From Candidatus Hadarchaeales archaeon (GTDB lineage: Archaea > Hadarchaeota > Hadarchaeia > Hadarchaeales > Hadarchaeaceae): a stretch of DNA of 64,000 nucleotides. How positions within the stretch are numbered: the first letter of the stretch is position 1; every line of letters starts with the position of its first letter. The translations under genes were made by a program, and so were the position numbers. The stretch is taken from NCBI GenBank assembly GCA_038872135.1, contig JAVZGN010000003.1, positions 1 to 64,000 of the forward strand, read 5' to 3'. The notes under the pieces were generated by a model that was given only the letters and a program-made list of their open reading frames with translations, made no database searches and was not told where the DNA came from. Positions 10,274 through 34,166 of this stretch are shown piece after piece.

Positions 10274-10341
10274 TTTTGATTCTCTAGAGTGGCATTGTAA
10301 AGTCACCTAAACCCGCGCATACACAATGAATTTCACGGTAG

Positions 10342-10435
10342 TGGGGTCGCCGGGATTTGAACCCAGGTCACCAGCTTTTCTGCGCCTTTCGGCGTCCCAA
10401 AGCTGGCAGGATAGACCAAGCTACCCCACGACCCC
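10342..10435 (-). tRNA. tRNA-Pro(TGG) with 19-nt canonical 37/38 intron
   Basis: Cloverleaf GGGGTCG..CCAGC TTTGGG[ACGCCGAAAGGCGCAGAAA]A GCTGG..GGTTCAAATCC..CGACCCCA; no encoded CCA. Confidence 0.95.
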
Positions 10436-33164: not shown

Positions 33165-33205
33165 TCTTATCGAAGAAATTTTGACATGTTCAAATTTTGA
33201 GAAAA

Positions 33206-33364
33206 TGGCGCCGGGGGGAGGACTCGAACCTCCGACCGCTCGGTTGCTGCATCCGGAATGGTCAGCCTTCAGAGATGGAGGCTCGCTCTTCATCCGCTCC
33301 CGGTTTTAACAGCCGAGCACTCTACCTACTGAGCTGTCGGGCCACCCAAAGGTGGAACCCCGGC
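33206..33364 (-). tRNA. tRNA-Asn(GTT) with two introns (8/9: 33336-33356; 37/38: 33245-33306)
   Basis: Removing the 21-nt and 62-nt segments gives an exact 76-nt cloverleaf GCCGGGG TA GCTC..CTCGG CT GTT AA CCGAG..GGAGG TTCGAGT CCTCC CCCCGGC G CCA; both junctions form BHB motifs. Confidence 0.88.
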
Positions 33365-33404
33365 ATCCCGGCACCAATTGTTTCTCAATCAAACTTCTAT
33401 AAAC

Positions 33405-34166
33405 CTATTTCCGAGCCAGCCGCTTTAGCCCTCTAGCCATCAAGGAGAAGGAGCTCCTGAGGTTTTCCCTGTTGGAAAAATTTTTCACGATTCTTTTCAG
33501 GACCCCTTTTGGAAGTTTTCTGAGTTTCTCAGCCTCCTTGACCATCAGAGGCATCGCCCTCACAATGTTATCAACAATGGTTATGTCGGCCGCCCTGGAC
33601 GTCCTTGACATCGGGTTTAGATCAACTGCGATCACACTCTTTCCAAGCCTCTTCAGCGCCTCCGTCCTGTCCCCATCCTCTAGAGGCACAAGAACAACAT
33701 CGGCCGCAAGAATCCCTCTCCTGTCGACTTTCCTCCTGTGGCTCTGGATTTCGGGGATTCTGGCGGAAAACTTATGGTCAGCCCCAAGCACATCTCCCGC
33801 TCCATGCCTTTTCAACCAGCCAACGATTTTCTTCTCCCTCTCAGCAGAGCCATGGAAGAGGTTGACCTCAAGGGGTGCCCCAGTGATTTTTGAAAGTTTA
33901 ACGAGTTCTCTTGGGACGAGAGCCGCAGCATTACCGTTAACGGAGATCACCGGCCGTCTGGCGAGAAGGAGCTGTGCAACCGCTGCTTTCACCGCTTTCC
34001 TGGCAAGGGGAGTTGTTTTTTCCCCCAAAAGATAGTCGAATGCTTCACCTCTCCCGTGGGCGGCGAGCCCTTCTGGCACAACCAGCCCCCTCCTGAACCC
34101 CTCTGCAAGCCTTTCCCTTATCCTCAGAGATTCTGCCCTTGGATGGTCGGGAGAAACCCAGCTCAT
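33405..34166 (-). CDS. 4-phosphopantoate-beta-alanine ligase (archaeal phosphopantothenate synthetase)
   Basis: HPRAESL, AHGRGEAFDYLLGE, ISVNGN, VPLEDGDR, DLNPMSRT. Confidence 0.93.
   Translation of the reverse strand: MSWVSPDHPRAESLRIRERLAEGFRRGLVVPEGLAAHGRGEAFDYLLGEKTTPLARKAVKAAVAQLLLARRPVISVNGNAAALVPRELVKLSKITGAPLEVNLFHGSAEREKKIVGWLKRHGAGDVLGADHKFSARIPEIQSHRRKVDRRGILAADVVLVPLEDGDRTEALKRLGKSVIAVDLNPMSRTSRAADITIVDNIVRAMPLMVKEAEKLRKLPKGVLKRIVKNFSNRENLRSSFSLMARGLKRLARK

Follow-up and report, generated by a model that had tools for sequence, protein, structure and literature searches.

A phylum-wide tRNA-Asn intron in Hadarchaeota predicted to form a kink-turn RNA with antisense to its own T-arm

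Among the described systems closest to the one reported here, the intron of euryarchaeal pre-tRNA-Trp is a box C/D small RNA (sRNA), as in Haloferax and as sR50 in Pyrococcus (Clouet d'Orval 2001 and Singh 2004, as cited in PMC7994747 and PMC3491384), and according to PMC3491384, tRNA-Trp was the only tRNA known to hold a functional C/D sRNA before the tRNA-Met of Nanoarchaeum equitans was described. The present analysis concerns the 62-nucleotide (nt) anticodon-loop intron of a tRNA-Asn(GUU) gene in Candidatus Hadarchaeales archaeon, located in a stretch of 64,000 nt (contig JAVZGN010000003.1, positions 1 to 64,000, assembly GCA_038872135.1) which is referred to below as the window. Sequence comparison shows this intron to be conserved across the phylum and to encode a kink-turn RNA which carries antisense to the T-arm of the tRNA that it interrupts, and it probably aids tRNA-Asn maturation, unlike the known intron-encoded guides for methylation.

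The tRNA-Asn intron resembles the tRNA-Trp intron sRNA in being a 37/38 splice intron, in its L7Ae-type kink-turn and in its antisense to its own tRNA. The tRNA-Trp intron has both C/D and C′/D′ motifs and two N+5 guides, for Cm34 and Um39, directed to the anticodon arm, while the tRNA-Asn intron has one kink-turn, no D′ box, antisense placed beside box C, and the T-arm as its target, and no sequence similarity between the two was found (Rfam matches were below threshold). The introns of tRNA-Met in N. equitans (Randau 2012, PMC3491384) and in the genome studied here (C5:32431-32548) are likewise short (43-66 nt), with a single kink-turn or K-loop and antisense to their own tRNA; their guide lies directly 5′ of CUGA with the N+5 position on C34 (read by eye), whereas the antisense of the tRNA-Asn intron lies 3′ of the C-box-like strand and has no such anchor. 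Antisense to the T-stem and T-loop on a kink-turn RNA is also found in the free-standing guides of Pyrobaculum aerophilum, namely the Cm56 guide (Renalier 2005, as cited in PMC7912444) and sR64 (PMC6009581), which are independent genes with canonical D/D′ boxes that serve many tRNAs, the Cm56 guide occurring where aTrm56 is missing. The tRNA-Asn element differs from them in being intronic, specific to tRNA-Asn and without an anchor, and in coexisting with aTrm56. Eukaryotic U3 and domain A of U14 represent the chaperone-type box C/D small nucleolar RNAs (snoRNAs), in which antisense without an adjoining D/D′ box holds a precursor RNA and no modification results. These may be the closest in working principle, by analogy and with no homology implied; they are long RNAs of several domains, with pre-rRNA as their substrate in trans, whereas the tRNA-Asn intron would act inside its own pre-tRNA. 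Neither a kink-turn or antisense in a tRNA-Asn intron nor Hadarchaeota tRNA introns were found in the titles and abstracts of the papers searched.

The sample comprised 66 genomes of the phylum, 41 of the order, from which 60 tRNA-Asn genes were recovered; the genome that holds the window (G000) consists of 34 contigs totaling 1.08 Mb, with a completeness of 91%. Coordinates are window positions, and the features of the tRNA-Asn gene lie on the minus strand. The gene, the intron and its splice motif are as follows.

33206..33364, minus strand: tRNA-Asn(GUU) gene with encoded CCA and two introns (ARAGORN after in-silico intron removal, and Rfam)
33307..33312, minus strand: anticodon loop positions 32-37 (CTGTTA), with CTGT (33312-33309) as 5′ strand of the 4-bp central helix and TA|A (33308-33306) as 5′ bulge and splice site
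33245..33306, minus strand: second intron, 62 nt, canonical 37/38 position (ARAGORN call; match to covariance model R1 at 33245-33305, 56.3 bits, E 7.8e-12)
33245..33250, minus strand: GCAG (33250-33247), the 3′ strand of the central helix, then the bulge CA|A (33246-33244), in which the 3′ splice site lies (alignment and sequence)

The unedited gene received no ARAGORN call and only a partial match to the Rfam tRNA model (33217-33335, 30.8 bits, model positions 9-63 only), because two introns interrupt it. Once a 21-nt intron at about position 8/9 was removed in silico, ARAGORN called tRNA-Asn(gtt) with a 62-nt intron at 37/38, exactly 33306-33245, which is the intron that the preliminary description, made from the letters of the window, had placed there; with both introns cut, a 76-nt tRNA-Asn was called. 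Its acceptor strands are GCCGGGG and CCCCGGC and its T-arm is GGAGG-UUCGAGU-CCUCC, and no second tRNA-Asn gene was found across the 34 contigs of the genome. Since the finder misses the gene, tRNA-Asn is probably left unannotated in Hadarchaeota genomes. At the splice sites, CUGU at positions 32-35 forms a helix with GCAG, which is close to the intron's 3′ end, and an outer helix lies beyond the bulges UA|A and CA|A. In the alignment of 34 sequences, 93.3% of the cells of the central helix (columns 6-9 and 72-75) are paired, and with two 3-nt bulges, a 4-base-pair (bp) helix and an intact tRNA after removal, the arrangement is that of an archaeal 37/38 bulge-helix-bulge.

The intron is present wherever the gene could be recovered. 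A BLAST search with the whole gene gave a match spanning the intron in 38 of the 41 genomes of the order, and covariance model R1, built from 34 sequences of the intron alone, matched 57 of the 66 phylum genomes, with one match per genome. The nine genomes missed by R1 include three of one family (f5) with a shortened 42-nt intron, one that was left out (G042), and five in which no tRNA-Asn gene was detectable and which are thus uninformative on the intron (G002, G006, G008, G047 and G041, the last being the sole genome of a second family and order). A 37/38 intron with the motif was found in all 60 recovered genes, 57 of them with the long form, in which the covarying stem and the kink-turn are shared, and it is the only universal intron of the tRNA-Asn genes of the phylum. 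A pattern scan of public contigs matched at least 80 loci; of the 80 listed, 11 lay in a tRNA-Asn context and the other 69 were chance 16-mers; among the 11, ten were labeled Hadarchaeota, Hadarchaeum, Hadarchaeales or Hadesarchaea and one was labeled 'uncultured archaeon'. Methanopyrus kandleri tRNA-Asn also has a canonical 37/38 intron (PMC5829648).

Within the intron, the structural elements are a stem and the two strands of a kink-turn.

33295..33303, minus strand: 5′ strand of the intron stem, CCGGGAGCG, the splice outer helix running into the C stem of the kink-turn; 6 of 8 aligned pairs form in the window
33253..33261, minus strand: 3′ strand of the intron stem, CCATTCCGG (alignment and RNAalifold)
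33287..33294, minus strand: bulged strand of the kink-turn, with L1-L3 = G A U (33294-33292), G1b A2b (33291-33290) and AGA (33289-33287) (alignment of 34)
33293-33287, minus strand: C-box-like AUGAAGA, part of the bulged strand
33262..33265, minus strand: non-bulged strand of the kink-turn, D-box-like CUGA, with G2n at 33263 and A1n at 33262 (alignment of 34)

The stem, of 7-9 bp, extends the outer helix of the splice motif. In the alignment of 34 sequences, both sides have changed in seven of its eight pairs and 94% of cells remain paired; the covariation score was reached by none of 500 shuffles, and in versions shifted by 1-3 columns the paired fraction fell to 27-42%. The RNAalifold consensus contained the same stem as its sole structure, with the 34 columns between the strands unpaired. 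The preliminary description had placed the terminal CCGG...CCGG (33303-33300 and 33256-33253), ATGAAGA and two CTGA motifs (33272-33269 and 33265-33262) correctly, and it had also cautioned that AGCCT/AGGCT could form an internal stem instead, which RNAfold does predict in the window and which is missing from the RNAalifold consensus; a purine run able to pair with CCUC was seen by eye upstream of the D side in some of the relatives only. Beside the kink-turn the window stem has two mismatches (C.C and G.A) which relatives lack.

The nucleotides which define a kink-turn are nearly invariant among the 34 aligned sequences. In the R-A-U bulge, L2 is A and L3 is U in 34/34, and the four nucleotides of the tandem G.A/A.G (G1b, A2b, G2n and A1n) are each kept in 34/34, while the -1b:-1n pair is G:C in 33/34. 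This last pair is what stands of the GG/CC flank which had been noted around the C/D pair, its second G being the bulge position L1 in the family alignment. In the non-canonical stem, 3b is A in 31/34 and U in 2/34, 4b is G in 33/34, 3n is C in 25, U in 7 and G in 2, and 4n is A in 27, U in 4 and C in 3, so that the combinations are A:C (23), A:U (7) and U:C (2) for 3b:3n and G:A (26), G:U (4) and G:C (3) for 4b:4n; the window itself has A:U and G:C in stem II and is nearest to the box C/D consensus. The D side reads NCGA in 25/34, with CUGA in the window and in one sequence of the same genus (L011) only. Between the strands, the loop is 19-21 nt in 32/34 and is variable and A-rich past the antisense. 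The standard sequence features of a kink-turn are thus all present (C stem, 3-nt bulge, tandem sheared G.A/A.G and non-canonical stem), the kink-turn is expected to bind L7Ae, and the genome encodes L7Ae (C4:69292-69570), Nop5 (C1:68263-68949) and fibrillarin (C1:67490-68155).

The loop carries the antisense, which begins one base past the kink-turn.

33277..33286, minus strand: spacer G (33286) and antisense CGAGCCUCC (33285-33277), complementary to tRNA positions 57-49 (alignment)
33225..33233, minus strand: proposed target G49-G57, GGAGGUUCG, the T-stem 5′ strand and T-loop (best antisense match among the 47 tRNA genes of the genome)
33269..33272, minus strand: CTGA, specific to the window and not conserved (NNGA at the matching offset, 15 after box C, in 7/57 introns)

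In the window, CGAGCCTCC (33285-33277) faces GGAGGTTCG of the tRNA (positions 49-57, 33233-33225) over 9 bp with one G.U, a pairing that the preliminary description had pointed out, and the longest pure Watson-Crick run is 5. The comparison of relatives is more informative. The block CGARCCUC is kept in 59 of 60 introns, it is the Watson-Crick complement of G50-G57 (GAGGUUCG), and the 8 bp are retained in 33 of the 34 aligned sequences; its sole variable base, R opposite U54, is A or G, both of which pair with U. When the conserved block was tested against its own tRNA, a Watson-Crick run of 8 nt occurred in 27 of 5000 shuffles (L007) and one of 9 nt in 8 of 5000 (L012). With the comparison of relatives the observation is thus real and well beyond chance. 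A search against the RNAs of the genome, which had been recommended as a check, gave the T-arm of tRNA-Asn as the best partner among 47 tRNAs (9 pairs with one G.U), tRNA-Lys(CTT) and tRNA-Arg(CCT) reaching 9 pairs only with two G.U; no run of at least 9 was found for the conserved core CGAGCCUCC in the 16S and partial 23S rRNA, and runs of 11 and 9 nt against rRNA lie in the non-conserved linker of the intron. Genome-wide, antisense runs of at least 10 pairs do occur.

The base which follows CCUC also varies with the T-arm. Set against position 49, it is C with G in 16 genes, A with A in 40, A with G in 4, and C with A in none, and in one genome (G026) whose T-stem pair is G49.U65 the intron base is still C, so that it follows position 49 and not position 65. 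On a quick maximum-likelihood tree of aEF-2 (57 rows, 56 with both traits), the minimum number of changes is 5 for the intron base and 7 for position 49; among five independent pairs differing in the intron base, position 49 was concordant in 4, opposite in none and unchanged in 1. This tracking is suggestive of physical pairing. In addition, the f5 family (one genus; genomes G028, G031 and G034; loci L033, L023 and L028) has a 42-nt intron with no D-side strand and no kink-turn, in which the former C-box AUG pairs with a CAU after the antisense, so that in three species AAGARCGAGCCUC becomes a 13-nt hairpin loop, this hairpin being by eye the sole structure of these introns. Since f5 keeps the antisense without the kink-turn, the antisense is under selection also where the kink-turn is missing. 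The duplex of antisense and T-arm has a predicted energy of -14 to -18 kcal/mol, and a fold which contains it was the minimum-energy fold or lay no more than 4 kcal/mol above it in five of seven precursors folded; the enforced folding was nested only and did not represent the pseudoknot with the intron stem, so these values serve as a rough plausibility check.

Taken together, we tentatively favor, with a confidence somewhat short of even, the reading that the intron is an L7Ae-bound antisense clamp or chaperone which acts on the T-arm of its own precursor and is not an N+5 guide. L7Ae would bind the kink-turn, as is inferred from the motif, to give a half-sized box C/D-like particle in which L7Ae scaffolds an antisense element. 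The loop would pair with the T-stem 5′ strand and T-loop (49/50-57) of the precursor that contains it or, once the intron is excised, with those of sister precursors, as conservation and the pattern at position 49 suggest, and the T-arm would be held or remodeled in this alternative pairing while the intron is present. The antisense base nearest the kink-turn faces G57 and the farthest faces position 49, which is five nucleotides from the top of the anticodon stem; with the L7Ae bend at the kink-turn folding the loop back along the anticodon/intron helix, this orientation would bring the two strands together, which fits action in cis. A more specific form, which is rather doubtful, is that such a cis-acting T-arm clamp constitutes a splicing-coupled folding checkpoint, a kink-turn antisense ribonucleoprotein without methylation: pre-tRNA-Asn would be prevented from adopting the L-shape as long as the intron is in place, and only its removal by the splicing endonuclease would allow the T-loop to form and be modified and the ends to be processed.

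The main competitor by precedent is a true 2′-O-methylation guide, in which L7Ae, Nop5 and fibrillarin assemble on the single kink-turn and one ribose of the T-arm is methylated, which could be A51 by a 12-nt ruler from box C, or C56 or U54 in another geometry. Precedent speaks for it and weighs against the clamp, since the known kink-turn RNAs of tRNA introns (Trp and Met) are read as guides: the tRNA-Trp intron guides Cm34 and Um39 as described in PMC7994747, the Nanoarchaeum tRNA-Met intron RNA is a further case (PMC3491384), and in the tRNA-Met intron of the genome studied here a guide is followed by CUGA with the N+5 base facing C34 (by eye). Methylation of the T-arm by such particles also has parallels, with sR64 of P. 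aerophilum predicted on G51 of the T-stem in 16 tRNA families (PMC6009581, section 15) and Cm56 made by a C/D particle in the same organism (PMC7912444, section 4.3). Moreover, the duplex covers guide positions 2-9/10 counted from box C, as a D′ guide usually does, and the genes for fibrillarin and Nop5 are present. The internal organization of the intron nevertheless makes a guide unlikely. Archaeal box C/D RNAs have RUGAUGA as box C and CUGA as box D, with U:U at 3b:3n and G:C at 4b:4n of the kink-turn (PMC5689011, section 11), while the tRNA-Asn introns have AUGAAGA on the C side and, in most aligned sequences, A:C (23/34) and G:A (26/34) in stem II. A conserved D′ box (NNGA) was absent at offsets 2-19 after box C, the maximum being 14 of 57 introns, with only 5-9 of 57 at offsets 13-16, and the 19-21-nt loop is too short for a second motif and a second guide, so that there is no C′/D′ motif. 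Because the conserved antisense adjoins box C while the N+5 rule counts from D or D′, the rule is left without an anchor, and the sequence just upstream of the D side, where a guide would be expected, is variable. The CTGA which follows the antisense (14 nt past box C), read as a D′ box in the preliminary description, occurs at that place in the window only, where it would indeed point to G49 at the edge of the duplex as had been cautioned. The retention of the antisense in f5 without a kink-turn argues in the same direction. As for Cm56, for which an analogy had been drawn, aTrm56 (PF01994) was found in G000 at 162 bits and in 26 of 41 genomes, which makes a guide for C56 unnecessary, and C56 at N+5 would require a D′ box at UCMA, which has no GA. 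By its sequence features, then, the intron falls outside the canonical box C/D methylation guides: of the earlier suggestion of a box C/D-like guide or chaperone RNA, the likeness in the invariant kink-turn and covarying stem and the conservation of the C-box-like and D-side strands hold up, chaperone is a fair reading, and the parts without support are the second pair of boxes, the consensus stem II and the role of methylation guide.

It may also be that the structured, L7Ae-bound intron is kept for another reason, such as the efficiency or order of splicing, the stability of a circular RNA or another protein, and that the T-arm match has no function; we consider this improbable, although several observations lend it weight or count against the clamp. 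In the window alone, a 9-bp run with one G.U between intron and mature tRNA was reached by 447 of 2000 intron shuffles and is not above chance. AAGA, upstream of the antisense, is conserved as well, also in f5 where the kink-turn is gone, and pairs with nothing in the tRNA, and in one genome (G035) the kink-turn is retained while little of the antisense is left. Because the T-arm target does not vary, true compensatory covariation is testable at one position only, and the sign test on the five contrasts there (median p 0.125) cannot reach 0.05. A49 is always faced by A in the intron (40/40) and never by U, so that extension of the duplex is evidently not always selected, and in the C-type introns the same C could instead be paired with the G of the kink-turn as part of an AUG/CAU hairpin (by eye), a possible second reason for its presence. 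Up to four introns occur per tRNA-Asn gene, so processing order could matter. What speaks against an incidental match is that the most conserved single-stranded block is the complementary block, at frequencies of 27 and 8 per 5000 shuffles in the two introns tested, that its only variable base stays pairable with U54, that the flanking base tracks position 49 in four of five contrasts and opposes it in none, and that f5 drops the kink-turn and retains the antisense in a loop. Far less probable again is action in trans, with the excised intron guiding or binding a different RNA, for instance rRNA or another tRNA. After excision, archaeal introns can persist as stable circles (PMC7994747), and when G.U pairs are allowed there are 9 pairs on tRNA-Lys(CTT) and tRNA-Arg(CCT) and 8 on the second tRNA-Met(CAT) gene (contig C11), which is probably the initiator, while the rRNAs offer no run of 9 or more for the core, and the U facing A51 is Watson-Crick only with T-stems of the tRNA-Asn type.

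If the preferred reading of an L7Ae-bound clamp or chaperone is correct and no methylation takes place, the intron would be, as far as we know, the first candidate archaeal counterpart of the chaperone-type snoRNAs, acting inside its own tRNA; if it does methylate, its guide geometry is one which current rules do not predict, and either reading explains the persistence of the intron. Intron-encoded kink-turn RNAs are known for tRNA-Trp and proposed for tRNA-Met, both directed to the anticodon arm through N+5, so tRNA-Asn is a third host tRNA, and what sets it apart is the combination of phylum-wide presence (60/60), a single kink-turn without a D′ box, antisense beside box C and a T-arm target. 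The system is small, with a 62-nt RNA, three or four proteins and one tRNA.

With regard to aTrm56, a replacement of this enzyme by the intron for Cm56 was considered and rejected, as PF01994 occurs here and in 26 of 41 genomes, and its absence is unlinked to the intron, which occurs both with and without aTrm56. The enzyme was not found in any of the 10 genomes of five related genera (G008-G012, G017-G019, G023 and G024; genera g6-g10), which are 79-95% complete, while most of the other relatives have it; in these lineages Cm56 may be absent or may arise by a different route. In Rfam only the tRNA model passed for the locus, the matches to sR41 (12.8 bits, gathering threshold 54) and sR47 (11.2 bits, gathering threshold 40) being below threshold.

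The tRNA-Asn gene of the window holds a further intron, beyond the single one recognized earlier, and a repeated leader sequence.

33336..33356, minus strand: first intron, 21 nt, at about 8/9, hairpin CCACC-TTTG-GGTGG then CCCGAC (its removal is needed for ARAGORN recognition)
33366..33372, minus strand: leader copy GCCGGGA of the acceptor 5′ strand, imperfect, 1 nt upstream of the true acceptor GCCGGGG (33364-33358)

The splice phase of the 21-nt intron is ambiguous by 1 nt (U|U), and its bulge-helix-bulge was inferred by eye; its CCCGAC can pair with acceptor bases 3-6. An insertion at about 8/9 is found in 24 of the 60 tRNA-Asn genes of relatives. In the 5′ half, 20 of the 60 genes lack a further intron, 20 carry one at 8/9, 16 one in the D-loop and 4 both, and 12 of 60 have a T-loop intron. 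A gene may thus hold up to four introns, at 8/9, in the D-loop (~28-31 nt), at 37/38 and in the T-loop at ~59/60 (24-31 nt), as in L036 and L209 with all four, L025, L027 and L029 with the D-loop intron, and L024, L026 and L030 with the T-loop intron. The many non-canonical positions suggest a splicing endonuclease of broad specificity. At least two acceptor-like copies lie upstream in 25 of the 60 genes, and, by our reading, these include nearly all of the genes with an 8/9 intron and two without (L023 and L033); the leader copy may be a helper of the splice motif, a target-site duplication or a decoy. An open frame of 79 codons with a TTG start (33197-33436, plus strand) runs antisense to the entire tRNA-Asn gene and is most likely spurious, but since the tRNA is missed, the frame may be what gene callers annotate at this locus.

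Other introns of the genome were also observed. The tRNA-Met(CAT) intron on contig C5 (43 nt, minus strand) has its guide and CUGA together with a GAUGAUG K-loop, with N+5 facing C34, and in the tRNA-Trp intron (59 nt, C10:21210-21344, minus strand) antisense to the anticodon arm flanks a single CUGA...GAUGAUGA K-loop. Free-standing dual-guide C/D sRNA genes were sought in the genome with crude scans, which gave no convincing one and one weak candidate, and tRNA introns may therefore hold much of the guide repertoire of the organism. On contig C26 (5037-10982), the 16S match spans 2401 nt for a model of 1478 positions, and positions 1423-2143 of the 23S model are spread over 1569 nt, the 23S gene being cut by the contig end; both genes thus seem to contain large insertions, which are probably rRNA introns. 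Elsewhere in the window, at 10341-10435 (minus strand), ARAGORN with default settings reports a tRNA with the 4-base anticodon 'tggg', and with introns allowed it reports tRNA-Leu(TAA) with a 19-nt intron at position 38.

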